DNA of 64,000 bases, taken from the NCBI GenBank assembly GCA_037308085.1, contig CP147779.1:2272001-2336000 (forward strand), written 5' to 3'. This document shows positions 33,199 through 41,800 of this stretch, piece after piece (within the stretch, counting starts at the first letter, position 1; every line of letters starts with the position of its first letter). This stretch comes from Promethearchaeati archaeon SRVP18_Atabeyarchaeia-1 (GTDB lineage Archaea > Asgardarchaeota > Atabeyarchaeia > Atabeyarchaeales > Atabeyarchaeaceae). Made by a program: the position numbers and the translations under genes. The notes beneath the pieces were generated by a model. It had not been told where the DNA came from. It worked only from the letters and a program-made list of their open reading frames with translations, and ran no database searches.

Positions 33199-34896
33199 TC
33201 AGATTATCTCCGGTGCCCTGTACTCTCCATAGACCTCCCTGAGGGCGTCGCATATTTCTCCATTTGTTGCGCACTTTCTTACCGCTTCAATGATTGCAGG
33301 CATTAGATTTTCGTTGCCCTGCGCCAGTTCCCGTATCTTCTCGAGGGCCTTTTTAGCCTCTTCGTTGTGTCGTTTGGCTTTGAAAGCTTTTAGTCTCTTC
33401 TTCTGTCGTTCCTCCACTTCAGGCTTGACGCGGAGCACCTCCCACGAGAGTTCTTCCTCGATTGCATACTCATTCACGCCGACAATAATGCGGCCCTTGC
33501 TCTCAACTTCCTTCTGGAACCTGTATGCGCTGCTGAGGATCTCCTTCTGCGGATATCCCCTCTCGATGGCCGGAATCATTCCACCCATGTCGTCGATCTT
33601 CTTCATGTAGTCCATTGCCTGACTCTCAATTTCGTTTGTCAAGCTTTCGATGTAGAATGATCCTGCCAGTGGATCAATGGTATTTGTGACTCCGCCTTCG
33701 CTAGCAATTATCTGCTGTGTTCTCAGAGCTATTCTGACTGCTTTTTCAGATGGCAATGCGAGGGCTTCGTCCATAGAGTTGGTATGCAGCGATTGTGTCC
33801 CTCCGAGAACGGATGCCAGCGCTTGAAGTGTTACGCGAACTATGTTGTTCTCCGGTTGCTGCGCCGTGAGGGTCACACCACCCGTCTGTGTGTGGAATCG
33901 GAGCATCATTGACTCGGGGTTCTGTGCCTTAAACCTCTCTTTCATGATCTTAGCCCAAAGCCTTCTCGCGGCTCGGAACTTCGCGACCTCCTCAAGGAGG
34001 TCCATGTGTGATGCGAAGAAGAATGATAATCTCGGCGCGAAAGTGTCAACTTTCAGACCTCGTGATGTGGCGGCATCGACGTAGGCTATTCCATCCGCCA
34101 AGGTGAATGCAACTTCCTGAACCGCTGTCGCGCCAGCTTCGCGAATATGGTAGCCGCTGATGCTTATGGTATTCCATTTTGGCACGTGCTTGAAGCAGTA
34201 ATCAACTATGTCTATTGCGAGTCTCATGGAAGGCTTAGGCGGGAAAATATACGTTCCCCTTGCGATATATTCCTTGAGGACATCGTTCTGAACTGTTCCT
34301 TGAAGAACAGATTCGTCTGCGCCCTGTTTCTCAGCCGTAACTATGTAGAGGGCAAGGATCACGGGAGCCGAGGAATTGATGGTCATGGATGTGCTGACTT
34401 TGCTCAGAGGAATTCCATTGAAAAGGGTCTCCATATCCTCGATGCTGTTTATGGATACGCCTACCTTGCCTACCTCACCGTACGAGAGTTCGTGATCCGA
34501 GTCGTAACCTATCTGGGTTGGAAGGTCAAAAGCCACGCTAAGCCCTGTCTGCCCTTCCTTCAGCAGGTATTTGAATCGCTGGTTTGTCTCCTCAGCCGAC
34601 CCGAAGCCGGCGTATTGCCGCATAGTCCAAAAGCGGCCCCTATACATTGTTGGGTAAACACCTCGGGTTGCCGGGAATTCTCCGGGAAACCCAAGTTCAT
34701 GTATGTAATCGGTGCTCCCGACATCCGAGAGAGTATACAGCCTCTTGACGGGTATGTTCGAGGATGATAGGAACTCTTTCTTGCGCTCAGGCGCTTTCTT
34801 CGTGTACTTTGAGAGGGTTGTCTGCTCCCACTTCTTCCGAGCCGCTTCAGTCTCATCGACTTTCTTCTCGTCGTACAAGTGCATTGTTCCCTCCAA
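33199..34896 (-). CDS. methylmalonyl-CoA mutase, large (substrate-binding) subunit
   Basis: [18 protein letters not shown] (Tyr), [12 protein letters not shown] (Arg), SGYHIREAG; these Tyr/Arg residues match methylmalonyl-CoA rather than isobutyryl-CoA specificity. Confidence 0.95.
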
Positions 34897-34903
34897 GAGA
34901 CTG

Positions 34904-35341
34904 CTATTCTCCTTTCCTGATCCTTTTCCTTAGGTACTCAACGAGGGTGCTCGTTGGTGTCCCTGGCCCAAACACCTCGTCGACGCCCATCTTCTTCAGC
35001 TCTGGGATGTCACTCTTGGGTATGATCCCTCCTCCCCATACCAGCATGTCTCCAGCGCCCTCCTTTCTCAGGAGCTCTATGACCTTCTTGAAGTAGTGTT
35101 TGTGGGTGCCGGAGAGTATGCTTAACCCTATAGCGTCAACGTCTTCTTGAACCGCGGATTTGACGATCTTCTCTGGTGTCTGCCTTATTCCAGTGTAGAT
35201 GACCTCCATTCCCGCGTCTCTGAGAGCGAGGGACACAACCTTGGCTCCCCGATCGTGACCATCCAAACCGGGTTTTGCTATCAGGACTCTAATCTTTGCC
35301 TTATTTGCGCTTTCGGCCATGCTGATCAGCCTCAACGACAA
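34904..35341 (-). CDS. acyl-CoA mutase small, cobalamin-binding subunit
   Basis: [31 protein letters not shown]. Confidence 0.96.
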
Positions 35342-35469: not shown

Positions 35470-36768
35470 TCAATGACCCAAGTCACCCAATGAGAGTAGC
35501 GGTTCTCCTATTCCCTCTTGATTCTGCCTCTCTTTCTCTATTGCCTTGCGCAGGTTTGTATTCCCGCCATAGTTGAAGATGCCGAGTAATTTGATTGCGT
35601 TCCGATACTCTTCCTCGGCCTGTTTATCATTTCCCGAGAGTCTCATTAGTCGGGCAATGTTTATGTAGCTCATTATATTGTCCCTGAACAGGAGTATTGA
35701 ATTCCTGAACCTCTCAAGCGCGTTCTCTTTGTTTCCCAGATTGAACTCCTTTCCCCCCTGGCAGAAAAGGCGATCTGACAGTCTCTTTAGAACTTCCTCC
35801 GAAAATGATCCTGCCTCTTCTTCTCCAGCAGCTTCTCTGCTCTGCGTAGATTCTCCGGAAAGAGTATCGAGGATAGATTTTCCTTTTGATGAAATGGCTT
35901 TGTATAGTGCCTGTTTCCCCATATCGCGGACGAGTCTGAATGTCTCTTTCTGTTTTCCTGGCATCACTGGCATTGTTTTGAATACTCTGACCATTTTCCC
36001 TGTGAAGCCGGCCTTTTCGATTTCAGTGAAGACTTCGTGCAAGTTGGGGAACCTTTGCAATAGTCCGATGAGACAGAGCGCAACTCGGGGGCTGTAAACT
36101 CCGAGTTCGACTGCAACTTCTGCTGCCTCTATTTCTGTAATATCCCCAAGACTATTGTGTTCGACCATCTTGGAGGTCAAGAAGTCGATCGAATTCTCTA
36201 AATCGAGTGTCTCATTCTCGTTTGAGACGTCGATGGCGCACTCCCTATTAAGATTCTTTCTGAAAGATGCCATAAACTGAAGTGGCCAATATCGCTCTGG
36301 TTTAATAGAAGTGACTCTAAGAGTGGGTCGGTTCTTTTCCACCGTGAATGATTCTTGTCTGATGTTTTCAAAGCCGGTTTTTCTCAAGAGGTCTACAATC
36401 AGGTTTCTCGGAAAGCAAAAAATGTGCCTCATGCCAATAGAGCCCAGTCCGTATATCCACACTAGGAGATCGCTCTTGTCTTTCTCGCCGGCTTTGGTGA
36501 AAAGCCTAAAGGCGGCTTCAATGTCAGGAGTTTCTACTAGGAGGCAGCCGCTTGGCTTCAGAACTCTGAACCATTCGCTTAGCGCGTAAATCGACTTGGC
36601 GAATCCCAGATGCTCGATTACTTGGCATGCATCAATTCTTTCGACACTATTGTCCTGGTACCTGAGGTCTGCTGCGTCCTGTATCTCGTCAGCAACGATG
36701 TCGTCGTATGCATCCACATTGACGTAGCCCTTCTTGTATACCCTGCCACAGCCCAAGTTGATTCTCAT
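35470..36768 (-). CDS. class I SAM-dependent methyltransferase domain plus C-terminal TPR
   Basis: INLGCG, VIEHL, WFRVLKPSG; TPR-like ENALERF...SYINIARL...AEEEYRNAI. Confidence 0.82.
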   Translation of the reverse strand: MRINLGCGRVYKKGYVNVDAYDDIVADEIQDAADLRYQDNSVERIDACQVIEHLGFAKSIYALSEWFRVLKPSGCLLVETPDIEAAFRLFTKAGEKDKSDLLVWIYGLGSIGMRHIFCFPRNLIVDLLRKTGFENIRQESFTVEKNRPTLRVTSIKPERYWPLQFMASFRKNLNRECAIDVSNENETLDLENSIDFLTSKMVEHNSLGDITEIEAAEVAVELGVYSPRVALCLIGLLQRFPNLHEVFTEIEKAGFTGKMVRVFKTMPVMPGKQKETFRLVRDMGKQALYKAISSKGKSILDTLSGESTQSREAAGEEEAGSFSEEVLKRLSDRLFCQGGKEFNLGNKENALERFRNSILLFRDNIMSYINIARLMRLSGNDKQAEEEYRNAIKLLGIFNYGGNTNLRKAIEKERQNQEGIGEPLLSLGDLGH

Positions 36769-36783
36769 GGATCAAGCTATGTC

Positions 36784-37140
36784 TCAGGAACGAAATATCC
36801 TTTTCTTCAAGTCTCTCTTGGTCGTAACACTGTACATCGGCTGTACTCCTCCAGGGGGAATGGGGTGACCGTAAAGGCCAGATGGTTGTGTAGGGGGATT
36901 GCCAGTCAGAAGGAAGAGAAATAGCGCCGCGATGAAGATCTCGACGGGGAAGAAGATGTACCAGTACTTCGTGACCAGAAGCTTCACGCCTGAAGAAGTT
37001 CCTCTCCTGTAAAGCCTTTCAACGTCATTCTTGTCAAGTCCTATAAGGCTGCCCGCAGCATAGATATCAGAAAGATCCGGTTTCTCGGGAGCCGCGTTTT
37101 CCTTCAGCAACTCCTTCATAACTCGCGCATATACACCCAT
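36784..37140 (-). CDS. single-pass membrane protein, candidate radical SAM substrate (paralog B)
   Basis: EKPDLSDIYAAGSLIGLDK; TM; Pro-rich linker with LYG and PMYS; tail YSVTTKRDLKK. Confidence 0.8.
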   Translation of the reverse strand: MGVYARVMKELLKENAAPEKPDLSDIYAAGSLIGLDKNDVERLYRRGTSSGVKLLVTKYWYIFFPVEIFIAALFLFLLTGNPPTQPSGLYGHPIPPGGVQPMYSVTTKRDLKKRIFRS

Positions 37141-37197
37141 TTAGTACCCTCACCTGCTGATTGTTCATACGGATTCGCTTCGCCCTCTTAGCAACTA

Positions 37198-37548
37198 TCA
37201 AGTTAAGAGAGATTTCTTCTTGAGGTCTGCTCTGCTAATAACATTGTACCTTGCGCCAGAGGGGTATACCTGAGACGGATTAGATGGAGGGCTTCCAGAT
37301 AACGCGTACGCAAGCAAAATAGCGAGGGCGGCTACGACGATTATGATCGGCAGGAAAATCCACGGTCGCTTGGCAAGAACGGTTCTCACCCTCGAAGAAG
37401 CAGGTCCCCGGTGGATTCTGGCTATGTCTTCCTTGTCTAGACCTAGTAGGCTCCCAGCGGCACTGATTTCTGCAATGTCGGGTTTTTCAATTGGCTTGGA
37501 ACCCGAAAGGATTTCCCCTAAAATGTGCTTGCTGCTGTTCAAACTCAA
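37198..37548 (-). CDS. single-pass membrane protein, candidate radical SAM substrate (paralog A)
   Basis: EKPDIAEISAAGSLLGLDK; TM; Pro-rich linker; tail YNVISRADLKK; clearly paralogous to 36784-37140. Confidence 0.8.
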   Translation of the reverse strand: MSLNSSKHILGEILSGSKPIEKPDIAEISAAGSLLGLDKEDIARIHRGPASSRVRTVLAKRPWIFLPIIIVVAALAILLAYALSGSPPSNPSQVYPSGARYNVISRADLKKKSLLT

Positions 37549-37581
37549 CCCTCCTCAAACCTAATTGCGGTCAGACCGTAT

Positions 37582-38625
37582 TTAGCCCTTTCTCATGTCC
37601 GACTCTATCCTATAGTAACAGTAGGCATTCTCCCTTCTCTTTGCAGTATTGTACGCCACTGAGAGGCAGCCTCCCCTGCAGATCGCTGCATGGGGACATG
37701 TGCGACAGAAACCAGACAGGGAGGATTCTTTGAACCGCCGGTTGTAGGCGAAGGAATCTGCGTCATTCCAGAGGTTGACAAGTCCCCGCTCCCTGACATT
37801 CCCCTCGATGAAGTCGTCAGGCAATGCGAGGCAGCCCTTTACATTTCCGTTGCTTTGAATGCCTAAGTTTGTGATTCCTGCCTGGCAGCCATTCCAGTCG
37901 CCGACTCCTCGGAATGGTATCACGCTCGAGTAGTAGCCAGAGTCGTGAGCGCCTGCCACTGGCATATCTTTTAAGCTATGCTTCTTTCTCAGCGATGCCA
38001 TGAACAAGCCGACAGAGTAGAATTCCAGTGGGGACAACATGTACTCCTCGCTGAATCTGCCAAAAGGTGATGCCATTTGAATCTGCCAGACAATATCCTT
38101 TTTCAGTATCATGTGCCCGATCTCGGGAAGTTCCCTGAAGTTGAGTTTGTGTACTGCCGTGATAATACTCACTGGTAGCTTCTTGTCCTTTAGTAAGCTA
38201 AGGGCTTTGACAGATTTTGTGAATGATCCCTTCGCACTCCGTATGTGGTCGTGTGTGCCCGGGTTTGAGCCATCAATGCTTATTCCTACTGCGTCCGGTT
38301 CGAGCTTTGATATTTGAGTCGCCATTCTCTCATCGATCATAAGTCCATTCGAGACGATTGAGAGGCTCATCCGCAGCCGCTTAACCTCTTCAGCAATTTC
38401 AAACCAGTCGTCTCGAAGGAAAACCTCTCCGCCAATTAACGCGACTCCTCCACAACCGATCTTCTTAAGGTCGCTACACAGCCTTATCGATTCCTCCGTC
38501 GTCAGTTCATCTGGTCTCGCTTTTCCAGCGGAGGAACCGCAGTGGAGGCATCTCATGTTACACTTCAGGGTTACCTCCCAGACTGCACAAGCAGGAGCGT
38601 ACACGTTCCCTCTCTCCATCTTCAT
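37582..38625 (-). CDS. radical SAM/SPASM peptide or protein maturase, PlpX (splicease)-like
   Basis: AVWEVTLKCNMRCLHCGSSAG; LIGGEVFLRDDW; WQIQ; SPASM GCQAG...KGCLALP...FCRTC-x5-CRGGC...NAYC. Confidence 0.9.
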   Translation of the reverse strand: MKMERGNVYAPACAVWEVTLKCNMRCLHCGSSAGKARPDELTTEESIRLCSDLKKIGCGGVALIGGEVFLRDDWFEIAEEVKRLRMSLSIVSNGLMIDERMATQISKLEPDAVGISIDGSNPGTHDHIRSAKGSFTKSVKALSLLKDKKLPVSIITAVHKLNFRELPEIGHMILKKDIVWQIQMASPFGRFSEEYMLSPLEFYSVGLFMASLRKKHSLKDMPVAGAHDSGYYSSVIPFRGVGDWNGCQAGITNLGIQSNGNVKGCLALPDDFIEGNVRERGLVNLWNDADSFAYNRRFKESSLSGFCRTCPHAAICRGGCLSVAYNTAKRRENAYCYYRIESDMRKG

Positions 38626-38789
38626 GAATCTGAAACAAGCAGACGGTACCTTATCTCCTTTTTGGGGAACAGAGATCTGAGCGACTCTGTCTCTTACTTG
38701 GAGAAAGAGATATAGATAGATATTTGTCGTGTACGTGAGCATATCTATACTGGCGTTCCGGATTGTGGGATCTCGAGGTGACGGGTTGA

Positions 38790-39233
38790 ATGTTGTGGGT
38801 CACTAGGAAGCAGCCTCATGTCGATCGGTGCGCCTCAGCATGGCTCATCAGAAGGTGGATCGATAAGGAGGCGGAGTTCGAGTTCATCTCAAGGGATGAG
38901 CCAATACCGAAGGGCTCGATCGCTTTTACGCTGCCGAAGGCCGAGATTAAGCCAGTCGAGGGCAAGACGACGACGTTCGACGCTCTGGCGAAGAGATACG
39001 GCGTTCAGGATGCGGTTGCCCTGAAGGTGGGCACCTTCATACACGATTTCGAAGTAGACGCCGAGGAGAACCCGAGTAGAGTCAGGTTTAAGGAGACCCT
39101 CGGGCTATGCTACGTACTTAAAGGTCTAGAGAAGGTATCCAGAACCGATCATGAAACGATCGAGAAAGCAATGGCCGTTGTAGATGCTTTCTTCGCTTCA
39201 TTGAAAGAGGCACTGTCATCTGAATCCCCGTGA
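38790..39233 (+). CDS. ChrB-domain (chromate resistance family) protein
   Basis: WVTRKQPHVDRCASAWLIRRWIDKEAEF. Confidence 0.85.
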   Translation: MLWVTRKQPHVDRCASAWLIRRWIDKEAEFEFISRDEPIPKGSIAFTLPKAEIKPVEGKTTTFDALAKRYGVQDAVALKVGTFIHDFEVDAEENPSRVRFKETLGLCYVLKGLEKVSRTDHETIEKAMAVVDAFFASLKEALSSESP

Positions 39234-39242
39234 ACTTGGTGA

Positions 39243-39869
39243 GTGGATTTGATACTTGGCATATGTGGAAGCCCCAGGAAAAAGGCAACGGACTATGTCC
39301 TCAGGGAAACTCTCAAGATGGTTGAAGCGGCGGGTCACGAAACGGAGTTCTTTGGAGTTCTGGGCAGGAATATGTCGCCTTGCCTGCACTGCGACTACTG
39401 CCTTAAGAATAAGAAATGCAAAGTCGAGGACGACATGCAACATCTCTATCCTCTCCTGAGAACCGCCCAGGGAATTATCATCGCAACTCCAGTCTACATG
39501 GGAGGAGTCAGCGCGCAGACGAAGATTGCTATGGACAGATGCAGAGCGCTATTTGCCGCGGACAGAGACGTTCTCAGAGGGAAGGTTGGCATGGCGATTG
39601 CTGTGGGTGGTGATCGTGTGGGAGGACAAGAGTTGGCAATACAGCAGATAATGACATTCTACATTATCAATGGGGTGACTCCTATAAGCGGAGGCTCTTT
39701 TGGAGCCAACCTCGGTGCGACATTTTGGTCGAAAGACACGCTCGACGGAGTCAAGGAAGATGAGGAGGGTTTTAGAACTCTGAAGAAGACAGTTAAGAAA
39801 TTCACAAGTGCACTGAGCGAACCAAGCGCAAGGAAGGATGCCGCAGTTCGGACAATCCCTTCAACTTGA
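39243..39869 (+). CDS. iron-sulfur flavoprotein (flavodoxin family)
   Basis: GSPRK, CLHCDYC-x5-C, ATPVY, GGDRVGGQE. Confidence 0.92.
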   Translation: MDLILGICGSPRKKATDYVLRETLKMVEAAGHETEFFGVLGRNMSPCLHCDYCLKNKKCKVEDDMQHLYPLLRTAQGIIIATPVYMGGVSAQTKIAMDRCRALFAADRDVLRGKVGMAIAVGGDRVGGQELAIQQIMTFYIINGVTPISGGSFGANLGATFWSKDTLDGVKEDEEGFRTLKKTVKKFTSALSEPSARKDAAVRTIPST

Positions 39870-39903
39870 GGTGAGATTAGGAGTGAATGAGGGGAAGAAA
39901 CGC

Positions 39904-40461
39904 ATGGATAGGAGAAAGGTGGCTTGGGGCATCACGGGGAGCGGGGAGAAACTACCTGAGACCGTGAATGTCATGAAGGTGGTCAAGCAGGAGTTCGAGG
40001 ACAGAGTTGATCTGCGAGTCTACGCGTCAAAAGCTGGTGATCAGGTTCTTAAGTACTATAAGTTGACTCAATACGTGGAGGGCAACTTCGGGAGAGTCTG
40101 GGTCGAGATCAACTCTAACTCGCCTTTTCTCGCCGGGCAGCTGCAGTCGGGCAAGTTCGAGTTTCTGGTGATCGCTCCCACGACCTCTAACACCGTGGCG
40201 AAGATTGCAGTGGGATTGGGGGACAGCATGCTCTCCAACTCAGCCATCATGAGCCTCAAAGCCTCGGTTCCTGTCTACTTGATGCCTTCGGATCAGTTAG
40301 AAGGGACTTTGAGTACTATACTCCCCAGCGGAAAAAGCCTACTACTGAAGATAAGAAAGGAAGATGCGGATAACGTTAGAAAACTGGCGGCAATGGAAAG
40401 CATGCACATACTTGAGAAGCCCGAAGACATTCTGCATGTCTTTAGAAGACACTTTGGCTGA
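39904..40461 (+). CDS. afpA: archaeoflavoprotein AfpA family
   Basis: VAWGITGSG, NSNSPFLAG, APTTSNTVAKI, PSD, LKIRKED. Confidence 0.85.
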   Translation: MDRRKVAWGITGSGEKLPETVNVMKVVKQEFEDRVDLRVYASKAGDQVLKYYKLTQYVEGNFGRVWVEINSNSPFLAGQLQSGKFEFLVIAPTTSNTVAKIAVGLGDSMLSNSAIMSLKASVPVYLMPSDQLEGTLSTILPSGKSLLLKIRKEDADNVRKLAAMESMHILEKPEDILHVFRRHFG

Positions 40462-40479: not shown

Positions 40480-41181
40480 CTAATTGGTTTTCCGCTTCAG
40501 CTTCTCTTTGGTCAGTCTTCTATTGTCCTCAGCCAGTTTGAATGCGGGATCCATCTTCAGCGCGTTGTCATAGCACCGTATTGCCTCACTGAGATCACCG
40601 AGTTCGTCAAAGGCAACACCCATATTGTACCAAGCGTTGCTGTCTTGAGGCTCTATTTTGAGGGATTCATAGAGACTACTCGTTGCCTCTTTGAACCTGC
40701 CTAGCTTGTTGAGGAGCAGACCCCTGTCACGCCAGGCGTCGGCATTCTTTGGCTGCATTCTAGTCGCTTGGTCTAAACTTTCCATCGCTTGATCATACCA
40801 GCCAAGGCTAAACAGGGCACTGCCTTTGCCGTACAATGCTTTATCGTCTTTCGGGTTTGCTTTGAGCATGTGGTCGTAACACTCTAGTGCTTCGTTGAAG
40901 GAGCCACGCATAGCAAAGGCGACACCTTTGTTGTACCATGCGTCCTTGTTTTCCGGTTCTATTCTCAGCACTTGGTTGAAGCTGGCTATGGCTTCTTTCG
41001 TCATGCCAAGCTTCATGAGAGCAAGGCCTCTATGGTGCCAAGTGGTCGCGTCCACCGCCCTCAATTTGAGAGATCTGTCGAAGCATTCCAAGGCTTCTTT
41101 GAACCTGCCGAGTTTGCTGAACTCTATGCCATTCTTAAGCCACTCGGTAGCCTCTTTCTCCTGTCTGGACGATTCTGGCAA
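40480..41181 (-). CDS. TPR repeat protein (about 6 repeats)
   Basis: repeated AWYNKG/EAL..YD motifs; GGAGG before TTG 41181. Confidence 0.9.
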   Translation of the reverse strand: MPESSRQEKEATEWLKNGIEFSKLGRFKEALECFDRSLKLRAVDATTWHHRGLALMKLGMTKEAIASFNQVLRIEPENKDAWYNKGVAFAMRGSFNEALECYDHMLKANPKDDKALYGKGSALFSLGWYDQAMESLDQATRMQPKNADAWRDRGLLLNKLGRFKEATSSLYESLKIEPQDSNAWYNMGVAFDELGDLSEAIRCYDNALKMDPAFKLAEDNRRLTKEKLKRKTN

Positions 41182-41272
41182 GAATGCGCCTCCTGTAATT
41201 CGAGATCTTGTTGGGGTTCGCACTATCTCTGTATTGATGCCGTCGGCGAAGAGAATATTAATTAGTAGAGAA

Positions 41273-41800
41273 TCAGTCCTTAGTCTTGCGGGCTTTCTTA
41301 ATGCCTTCCCCCTGGTACCTTCCATTGTAGGCTGAACTCGCTTCCATCGCGTCTGTGACGACAAATTGGAACCAGCGCTCATTTTCCGCAATTCTCAGTT
41401 CCTTTATCGGTATGTAGACCGTCTGCACTCCGATGCCTTCGTAGCCGGGGTCGAAGACCGCCGTCTCAGACTTTATGACTCCAAGCCGGTTCAATGTGCT
41501 TCTCGGAAAGGAGAGCCCTATTGCATTGATCGGTATCCTGACGGCAACGTTGAGGCGAGCCTCATATACGCCTCGTTTGAGTGAGTACAACCCGTTCTGC
41601 GGCTTGCATGAGATTTTCGGCATATCCAGTTCTCTGCGCTCACCATCAAGTGTGGCGGTAGCATTGTCTTCTATTCGATCAACATTTGAGACCCCAATGT
41701 CGACTCCACAAGGGTTTATCTTTATTCCTTGCAGGCGATCCCTGTTCGCCTCTACCACCTTCAGAACCTCTTTGTAGATCCTTTGACCTGACCAGAACAT
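41273..41800 (-). CDS. trimeric dUTPase/dCTP deaminase family protein
   Basis: PCGVDI, PRSTLNRLG, AVFDPGYEG, YNGRYQGE. Confidence 0.88.
   Translation of the reverse strand: MFWSGQRIYKEVLKVVEANRDRLQGIKINPCGVDIGVSNVDRIEDNATATLDGERRELDMPKISCKPQNGLYSLKRGVYEARLNVAVRIPINAIGLSFPRSTLNRLGVIKSETAVFDPGYEGIGVQTVYIPIKELRIAENERWFQFVVTDAMEASSAYNGRYQGEGIKKARKTKD

Follow-up and report, generated by a model that had tools for sequence, protein, structure and literature searches.

A Candidate Splicease-like Cassette for Tyrosine-Directed Maturation of Small Membrane-Anchored Proteins in an Asgard Archaeon

A stretch of 64,000 nucleotides from the genome of Promethearchaeati archaeon SRVP18_Atabeyarchaeia-1 (contig CP147779.1, positions 2,272,001 to 2,336,000; the window, in whose own numbering all positions below are given) carries on its minus strand, between positions 35470 and 38625, four co-oriented genes that we propose, in a judgment that stands evenly balanced, to be a splicease-like, tyrosine-directed maturation cassette for small, surface-displayed, membrane-anchored proteins. 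The genes encode a radical S-adenosylmethionine (SAM) enzyme with a SPASM domain, two paralogous small proteins referred to here as A and B, and a protein in which a class I SAM methyltransferase is followed by a TPR-like helical tail (MT-TPR). The successive gaps are 33, 57, and 15 nt in the open reading frame (ORF) listing, just as a first-pass annotation of the sequence had described. Conservation across relatives and a modeled complex suggest that the enzyme very probably modifies the Tyr core of A and B. That its chemistry is the excision of tyramine is argued by analogy and in our estimation falls slightly short of an even chance, and a surface protease inhibitor as the product is a speculative and rather doubtful extension. 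Tyramine splicing has so far been described from bacterial natural-product biosynthesis, where 27 pairs of enzyme and substrate are confirmed and the distribution covers 189 bacterial genera (PMC10849128). The hits of the survey by Scott et al. 2022 (Chem), as relayed in reviews, are likewise given as 189 bacterial genera, and a single sentence that refers jointly to surveys of spliceotides and of graspetides speaks of genomes from bacteria and archaea (PMC11626197). We found no report in the literature of the cassette being tested, and the Scott et al. survey may include the clade.

The Radical SAM Enzyme and Its Nearest Families

The radical SAM/SPASM maturase (37582-38625, minus strand; 347 aa from the ATG of MKMERG) is encoded once in the genome and matches Pfam Radical_SAM (3.4e-25) and SPASM (4.7e-07), with no additional N-terminal domain in the Pfam scan. 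It has the CX3CX2C motif and a complete seven-Cys SPASM set, and C22, C26, C29, C247, C265, C307, C310, C316, C320, and C336 are invariant or nearly so in the alignment of its relatives. Among NCBIfam models the top match is TIGR04103, the PlpX/PcpX splicease model named "nif11-class maturase 3" (230.7 bits; cut-off 725), and the second is the closely related TIGR03913, labeled "GDL motif peptide-associated radical SAM/SPASM maturase" or rad_SAM_trio (211.9 bits, or 213.3 in the genome search; cut-off 591.75). Lower matches follow to WgkB (151.8 bits), MftC (145.5 against a cut-off of 265), AhbD (141.7 against 500), NirJ (138.3 against 515), and PqqE (84.6 against 381.35), such that the splicease models beat all cross-linking families by 60-80 bits. 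Four other radical SAM proteins of the family also rank TIGR04103 and TIGR03913 as their top two models, and in some members TIGR03913 is the better of the two. Genuine cyanobacterial members of TIGR04103 score 805-862 bits. Across 301 sampled genomes from the GTDB phylum of the Gastranaerophilales carrier G001, a phylum that we take to be Cyanobacteriota, TIGR04103 scores form tiers of >800 bits (the true members), ~600, ~440, and ~230 bits, and the last tier includes a member of the window enzyme's family. The middle, cyanobacterial tiers also reach 375-452 bits against TIGR03913, and the two models therefore describe one broader group. A search of five carrier genomes, and of 251 genomes from the phylum to which the Syntrophus carrier G002 belongs, gave no TIGR03913 member above the cut-off.

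A quick IQ-TREE phylogeny (LG+G4) was calculated from 117 sequences, with Ahb/NirJ-like radical SAM proteins from carrier genomes as the only outgroup and without TIGR03913 members, MftC, PqqE, WgkB, or RhaX. The family of the window enzyme forms a single clade in this tree (88 rows, SH-aLRT 96) and the cyanobacterial TIGR04103-type tiers form a separate one (22 rows, support 100), to which the family is sister rather than nested within it. The Ahb/NirJ-like proteins from other carrier genomes (loci L113-L118) are placed outside the family. An Ahb/NirJ identity for the enzyme was rejected on this separate grouping and on the sub-cut-off scores; the clustering with Ahb/NirJ that the first-pass annotation had named as the outcome speaking against its own reading is not seen in the tree. 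Ten positions are conserved at ≥85% in both clades and found in at most one of six outgroup rows, and they include E17 and L20 (WExTL), G30 and S31 (in the HCGS that immediately follows the cluster motif), and W180, Q181, and Q183 (WQIQ). All of the motif blocks listed in that annotation are indeed present, and these three are common to TIGR04103-type enzymes and absent in the Ahb/NirJ-like outgroups. The earlier designation of the enzyme as PlpX-like is correct insofar as the splicease models are the nearest curated families, but it does not extend to membership (230.7 vs 725 bits; a sister clade, not a nested one). Judged from its sequence, the window enzyme is splicease-like, but outside the curated families TIGR04103 and TIGR03913.

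Two Small Proteins with a Leader Helix and a Tyrosine Core

Protein A (37198-37548, minus strand, 116 aa), the candidate substrate on which the modeling was performed, and protein B (36784-37140, minus strand, 118 aa) are paralogs (44% identity, E 1.9e-19) and the sole two copies in the genome. Each has a single strongly hydrophobic stretch of 19 residues by hydropathy, so the description of the pair as paralogous proteins of 116 and 118 aa with one transmembrane (TM) segment holds. Lys and Arg are found in the 15 residues before the stretch (four in A, two in B) and in neither protein in the 15 residues after it, and the predicted topology is therefore N-in/C-out. Protein A can be divided into a leader helix (approximately residues 27-49; 37402-37470, minus strand), the TM segment (approximately residues 62-85; 37294-37365, minus strand), and a core (residues 94-110; 37219-37269, minus strand). 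Neither protein matches a Pfam or NCBIfam model, protein A had no usable counterpart in the ESM Atlas, and a profile search with the small-protein alignment returned just 24 proteins, every one of them named "hypothetical protein". Relatives were collected from the loci of homologous enzymes with a hidden Markov model seeded with A, B, and seven neighbors of close homologs and iterated on the ORFs of the fetched loci. The resulting family alignment reveals a leader helix of the approximate form [IL]-G-x-x-L-G-L-x-x-x-E-[IV], which in A and B reads AAGSLxGLDxxD, with ≥90% conservation of G32 and G36 of A. The middle segment varies, with a TM helix in Asgard members, none in many Thermoplasmatota, and a hydrophobic stretch with a lipobox-like end in Elusimicrobiota. 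The C-terminal core follows the consensus T-Y-P-P-G-T-x-Y-G-T-[IV]-S-x-K-D-F, in which one Tyr is invariant.

This invariant residue is Y101 in A, preceded by Arg in ARYNV (codon 37246-37248, minus strand), and Y103 in B, in PMYSV (codon 36832-36834, minus strand). Protein B has a second Tyr, Y90, in an LYG context within a Pro-rich insertion (codon 36871-36873, minus strand). It aligns with a Tyr at position -6 of the family core that is kept in 66 of 126 cores and is shifted in B by the insertion. The site singled out earlier was L89-Y90-G91 of B, under the expectation of an XYG motif, and neither part of that choice is supported: the family-invariant Tyr is Y103, Y90 matches only the part-conserved -6 position, and the window has RYN and MYS at its invariant sites. 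Among the nearest relatives, A-type proteins read RYG and B-type proteins LYS or MYA. At +1 from the invariant Tyr, 54 of the 126 cores have Gly, 28 Ser, 11 Ala, 9 Thr, and 9 Tyr or Phe. At +2, Thr or Ser is the sole side-chain residue conserved at a fixed spacing from the Tyr, and some members have Gly or Ala there.

Modeling of the enzyme with protein A links this core to the active site. The model was generated in three runs from the alignments of the enzyme and of protein A and has an ipSAE of 0.85 (the median of 0.88, 0.85, and 0.82) vs 0.02 for the best control; in the calibration of the tool, 58 solved complexes out of 80 reach that mark, as do 2 mismatched pairs out of 110, a calibration that is rough here since our own alignments were used. 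The runs share ≥78% of their contacts with a partner pLDDT of ≥66. On the side of protein A the interface comprises residues 17-49, with the leader helix, and residues 100-110 (RYNVISRADLK), and the TM segment lies outside it. The leader packs onto enzyme helix 200-218, and the remaining enzyme contacts (residues 13, 15, 60, 62, 89-91, 111-114, 151-155, and 177-181) sit on the barrel strands with the GGE, N93/G94, S116/D118, and WQIQ motifs, i.e., around the active site. The closest PDB sequence relatives of the enzyme are SkfB, PqqE, and SuiB, and no similar complex has been solved, so it is unlikely that the model passed by recall of a known complex. The model supports docking of the leader helix and the Tyr core of A on the enzyme.

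Conservation of the Cassette

The association of the small proteins with the enzyme is not confined to the window. The enzyme has 2378 database relatives and at least 581 matches among species-representative genomes. Archaeal carriers are found in Thor-, Prometh- (Loki), Hermod-, Hel-, and Hodarchaeota, Thermoplasmatota, and Undin- and Nanohalarchaeota, bacterial ones in Elusimicrobiota, Chloroflexota, Syntrophus/Smithella, Nitrospiraceae, and Gastranaerophilales, and all look like anaerobes. Small-protein homologs stand beside the enzyme in 61 of 79 species-level loci, in one to five tandem copies nearly all on its strand; a same-strand methyltransferase homolog is detected by tblastn in 52 of the 79, and 42 hold both, in a set in which many loci end at contig ends. 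When all neighboring ORFs were clustered, three families recurred, namely the enzyme, the small proteins, and the methyltransferase, and no recurring peptidase, transporter, or RiPP recognition element (RRE) gene appeared across the loci. The claim that no PlpY/RRE partner, Nif11 leader, or peptidase is in view is thus borne out by the lack of family matches on A and B and by this clustering, and both the tie of the small TM proteins to the enzyme (neighborhood in 61 of 79 loci, predicted docking) and the inclusion of the methyltransferase as a conserved third component (52 of 79 loci) stand as first described. A reading of the small proteins as unrelated neighbors was rejected on the conserved adjacency and the predicted docking.

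The third component (35470-36768, minus strand, 432 aa) matches Pfam Methyltransf_11 and, weakly, TPR. Its methyltransferase domain covers approximately residues 1-170 and is followed by an all-helical, TPR-like C-terminal domain, and homologs keep both this architecture and a length of ~430 aa. In an AlphaFold2 model (pLDDT 90.2, pTM 0.87) a Rossmann-type methyltransferase domain starts from the first residues and the rest is an all-helical repeat domain. Motif I (GCG) and the acidic residues typical of SAM-binding motifs are invariant in the homologs. A PDB sequence search gave TPR and weak methyltransferase matches only, and in Elusimicrobiota the tblastn match is limited to the methyltransferase domain. 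That the helical domain binds the precursor is a guess.

At closer range, the relative with the most similar enzyme, L135 (71% identical), has divergent Flavoprotein, FMN_red, and ChrB_C genes followed by the enzyme, two small proteins, and MT-TPR, and the window neighbors match this gene order and position. The attribution to an Asgard-like archaeon also holds, as the genome belongs to the same GTDB phylum as a Thorarchaeota genome (the SMTZ1-45 locus). In this phylum the enzyme is present in 72 of 301 sampled genomes, and in 20 of the 90 that are of high quality. It is absent from a closed genome of the window's taxonomic family, and a genome of the same genus (G328:C101:23089-24118) has it in two overlapping pieces (query residues 1-165 and 158-344), likely from a frameshift or an assembly error. 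By this distribution, the cassette is accessory and patchy.

Diversity Before the Tyrosine and Kunitz Fusions

The residue that precedes the Tyr in a splicease substrate is the one that the enzyme converts into an α-keto-β-amino acid. In the window family, paralogs from the same locus have different residues ahead of the invariant Tyr in 95% of pairs (63 pairs from 30 loci), and other core positions differ in 13-56% of pairs, with the +1 position at 13%. Once loci with identical sets were removed, the observed value of 0.952 compares with a shuffled mean of 0.826 and was reached by 3 of 5000 shuffles. The set of such residues in a locus is typically basic, aliphatic, and aromatic. The window pair is Arg in A and Met in B, and the nearest relatives have R+L or R+M.

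Several bacterial precursors carry a further domain between anchor and core. Kunitz/BPTI is an extracytoplasmic serine-protease-inhibitor fold, and it is found at this place in precursors of Syntrophus, Nitrospiraceae, and a deltaproteobacterial metagenome-assembled genome (1e-13, 5.6e-15, and 8.4e-04). The Kunitz/BPTI-like precursors with a YPVSKYGGVSIRDF-type core are located at L063:3577-4005, L067:3601-4005, L069:3601-4005, and L071:3469-4008. L063 and L071 have Pfam support for the domain, as does L067 with a match under the gathering score, and the Smithellaceae precursor L069 has a similar Cys-rich stretch by eye only.

Comparison with Known Systems

Type I spliceases (PlpX/PcpX, TIGR04103/IPR026482) resemble the window system in their radical SAM/SPASM enzyme with its WExTL, HCGS, and WQIQ motifs, which is the best NCBIfam match, in a Tyr (here a candidate target) within a Pro-rich C-terminal core, for which X-Y-G is the commonest site form in the window family, and in the presence of several precursor copies beside the enzyme. 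They differ in their use of PlpY/RRE and a Nif11/NHLP-type PlpA leader, neither of which is at the window cassette. The window family, in turn, has a TM anchor between leader and core, a +1 residue that is often not Gly, a conserved methyltransferase-TPR partner, and a distribution over archaea and anaerobic bacteria. The binary type II systems of Rheinheimera (RhaX/RhaA, RcsX, and RasX; PMC11414181, PMC11626197) share with it a two-component logic without a Y protein. In AlphaFold models of RhaX/RhaA the leader α-helix fills the site that PlpY occupies in type I, and the XYG is in the active center (PMC11414181). The window complex model (ipSAE 0.85, control 0.02) shows a comparable layout, a likeness drawn from the published description without the RhaX sequence. 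Since a leader helix reportedly takes over the role of PlpY in binary spliceases, the missing PlpY/RRE gene is no obstacle, and by analogy the window system would work like a binary spliceotide system. However, Rha-type precursors are soluble with LYG or MYG sites, and no methyltransferase partner is described for type II (PMC11414181, PMC11626197).

MftC and PqqE are also radical SAM/SPASM proteins that act near the C-terminus of a small precursor with a conserved Tyr encoded beside the enzyme, but their models score lower (145.5 and 84.6 bits), they need the RRE proteins MftB and PqqD, they lead to a released cofactor, and their precursors are neither membrane-anchored nor diversified between paralogs. 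What is new is an anchor, of the TM or lipobox kind, set between leader and core, along with a methyltransferase-TPR partner that is conserved, presence in archaea, and a core strongly conserved across domains with programmed variation at one position.

Proposed Mechanism and Alternatives

In the mechanism that we propose, the enzyme would bind the cytoplasmic N-terminal leader helix of A or B on helix 200-218 and thread the C-terminal core into its barrel, as the complex model suggests. It would then attack Y101 of A or Y103 of B, by homology likely through the reaction of its nearest relatives, tyramine excision, and the MT-TPR protein would add a methyl group. The modified protein would insert N-in/C-out with its tail displayed outside the cell on a Pro-rich stalk, where the tail may serve as a ketoamide warhead against proteases, its specificity dictated by the residue ahead of the Tyr. 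Inhibition of Ser and Cys proteases is reported for spliceotide ketoamides, and the unspliced peptides are inactive (PMC11626197). Taken together with the diversified pre-Tyr residue, the Kunitz fusions, and the N-in/C-out topology, this activity suggests surface protease-directed warheads with paralog-specific P1-like side chains. The wider proposal, that the cassette installs backbone ketoamide warheads on surface-anchored proteins across both prokaryotic domains with paralog side chains covering different protease specificities, is one that we regard as rather unlikely.

A number of observations weigh against a splicease-type cassette. The enzyme scores far under both curated cut-offs (725 and 591.75), and the node that makes its family sister to the spliceases has an SH-aLRT of just 70 over a thin outgroup that is without MftC, PqqE, and WgkB. 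Positions that are invariant within each clade differ between them (N93/G, I155/N, T157/Q, H227/N, S233/G, and L266/P), and the chemistry may therefore differ. The invariant sites of the window, RYN in A and MYS in B, are not XYG, and the +1 residue is Gly in just 43% of family cores. As for the supporting numbers, the complex model score of 0.85 is the program's own confidence, not a measurement, and the figure of 3 in 5000 shuffles overstates significance in that the statistic includes related, non-independent loci. A fold search with MT-TPR gave just generic class I methyltransferases at TM-scores of ~0.2-0.45, with no methyl acceptor indicated. Finally, leader and core would lie on opposite sides of the membrane after insertion, so modification would have to take place in the cytoplasm, before insertion or export.

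Several of these points also feed the most serious alternative, to which we assign a lesser but real chance: the same cassette acts on the same substrates through another Tyr-directed radical chemistry, such as a C-C or C-O cross-link, of the kind made by PqqE, MftC, or the cyclophane-forming maturases, or a β-carbon modification, with the product capped afterward by the methyltransferase. The family stands as a clade of its own whose active site has particular invariant residues, +1 is not Gly in 57% of cores nor at either invariant window site, and MftC and PqqE, which act on Tyr in small peptides, are among the NCBIfam matches. The -6 Tyr kept in 66 of 126 cores is a possible cross-link partner. 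Yet the splicease models outscore the cross-linking families by 60-80 bits, and the most diversified core position is precisely the pre-Tyr residue that spliceases convert. No side-chain residue other than the +2 Thr/Ser, itself Gly or Ala in some members, is available at a fixed spacing from the Tyr.

It is improbable that the modified tail is instead the precursor of a diffusible, conserved product, i.e., a redox cofactor or signal in the manner of pyrroloquinoline quinone (PQQ) or mycofactocin. The core shows unusual conservation over two domains of life for a RiPP (a peptide made by the ribosome and modified after translation), Thermoplasmatota precursors are short, TM-less proteins of 57-67 aa beside twin radical SAM genes, and all carriers look like anaerobes. 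Nevertheless, only three gene families recur and there is neither a peptidase nor a transporter among them, a single cofactor would not tolerate the systematic pre-Tyr differences between paralogs, and the membrane anchors, lipobox-like signals, and Kunitz fusions indicate an extracytoplasmic protein. Very unlikely, too, is a role of the small proteins as membrane tethers or regulators for a radical SAM enzyme and methyltransferase that act on a lipid or cofactor, for although archaea have lipid-modifying radical SAM enzymes, many Thermoplasmatota lack the TM segment and retain the leader and Tyr core, the model puts the Tyr core rather than the TM segment in the barrel, and the nearest families are peptide maturases.

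Genomic Surroundings and Variants in Relatives

A longer ORF for the enzyme extends to 38742. The start was taken as 38625 because homologs are ~345 aa long and a TATA-like, AT-rich stretch (38700-38722, minus strand, read from the sequence ~75-95 nt upstream of the 38625 ATG) falls inside the extension. This stretch and an AGGAG-like stretch between it and the ATG are a possible archaeal promoter and ribosome-binding site. A scan for sigma-70 promoters and terminators, which does not cover archaeal promoters, gave counts near chance. One flank of the cassette holds a split methylmalonyl-CoA mutase (B12-binding subunit and mutase, 33199-35341) and the other the divergent ChrB_C, FMN_red, and Flavoprotein genes (38790-40461), and the nearest relatives, L135 and L136, keep synteny on the ChrB_C side. 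A separate 303-aa protein with TPR-like repeats is encoded 1.7 kb from the cassette on the same strand (40480-41391, minus strand).

Two metagenomic loci (L001:4581-6410 and L004:5084-7417) encode enzymes 65-68% identical to that of the window, with precursors on both sides of the enzyme. These cassettes lie near mutase and acetyltransferase genes, not ChrB_C, and have no methyltransferase within the fetched flanks. A relocation of the cassette relative to them was rejected in that L135 and L136 hold the same place beside ChrB_C; more likely, L001 and L004 carry a second, methyltransferase-less cassette. Two tandem radical SAM paralogs from two sub-clades occur in the Thermoplasmatota loci L119 (G005:C1:1031500-1037500), L012, L014, L018, L029, and L042, together with a methyltransferase and two to four precursors that are short (57-67 aa) and lack a TM segment. 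Three radical SAM genes of the family are present in one closed Thermoplasmatales genome.

The precursors themselves are similarly varied. In Elusimicrobiota (L079:6564-6881, L062:3541-3858, L065:2450-2752, and L053:6096-6428) the leader helix runs straight into a hydrophobic segment that ends in a lipobox-like L-A-A-C or L-V-G-C, and the core reads PGYPCGTRY[YF]TVS. From this arrangement, the leader may be the n-region of a lipoprotein signal peptide that is cleaved on export, which would explain the absence of a dedicated peptidase for the Elusimicrobiota versions. Multiple cores are seen in L036:3606-3863, which has KAGT-x-YGT-[VI]-S three times, and in the Myxococcales locus L087:6079-6387, with repeated PPPYAPGT[RK]YGLVQRTNL units, and L042:3288-3668 is a fused double leader-core unit. 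Longer precursors with two hydrophobic segments and a shorter core of the Y-G-V-[FY]-[ST]-K type (L048:2544-3996, L081:2067-3990, L028:3184-3929, and L044:3618-3992) come from Hodarchaeota, Undinarchaeota, Nanohalarchaeota, and one Thermoplasmata locus, in up to five tandem copies. Two proteins, L112:2767-3117 and L107:2747-3211, adjoin radical SAM enzymes of the intermediate TIGR04103 tiers (427 and 605 bits) and have an N-terminal zinc ribbon (CxxC...CxxC), a segment of the TM or lipobox-like kind, and Y-G sites rich in Pro (CYGAPPP; QPVYGAP twice). Given this position, membrane-anchored candidate precursors may exist in the bacterial splicease clade too.

Implications

If the proposed splicease-type chemistry is correct, the cassette would be the first case of splicease-type backbone editing in archaea and on membrane proteins. 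A sister family present in about a quarter of the sampled Asgard genomes would bring archaea, and proteins, into the range of backbone editing or, alternatively, would reveal a new Tyr-directed radical chemistry. It would also offer a single-enzyme system for protein engineering that relies on a leader helix only. The paralog pattern and the Kunitz fusions yield a testable hypothesis, surface protease inhibition, and should the warhead reading be true, the physiological role would lie in surface protease control or defense, not in a secreted natural product. For the organisms themselves, the cassette would mean that Asgard archaea, along with many uncultured anaerobes, have a feature at the cell surface that has gone unrecognized.

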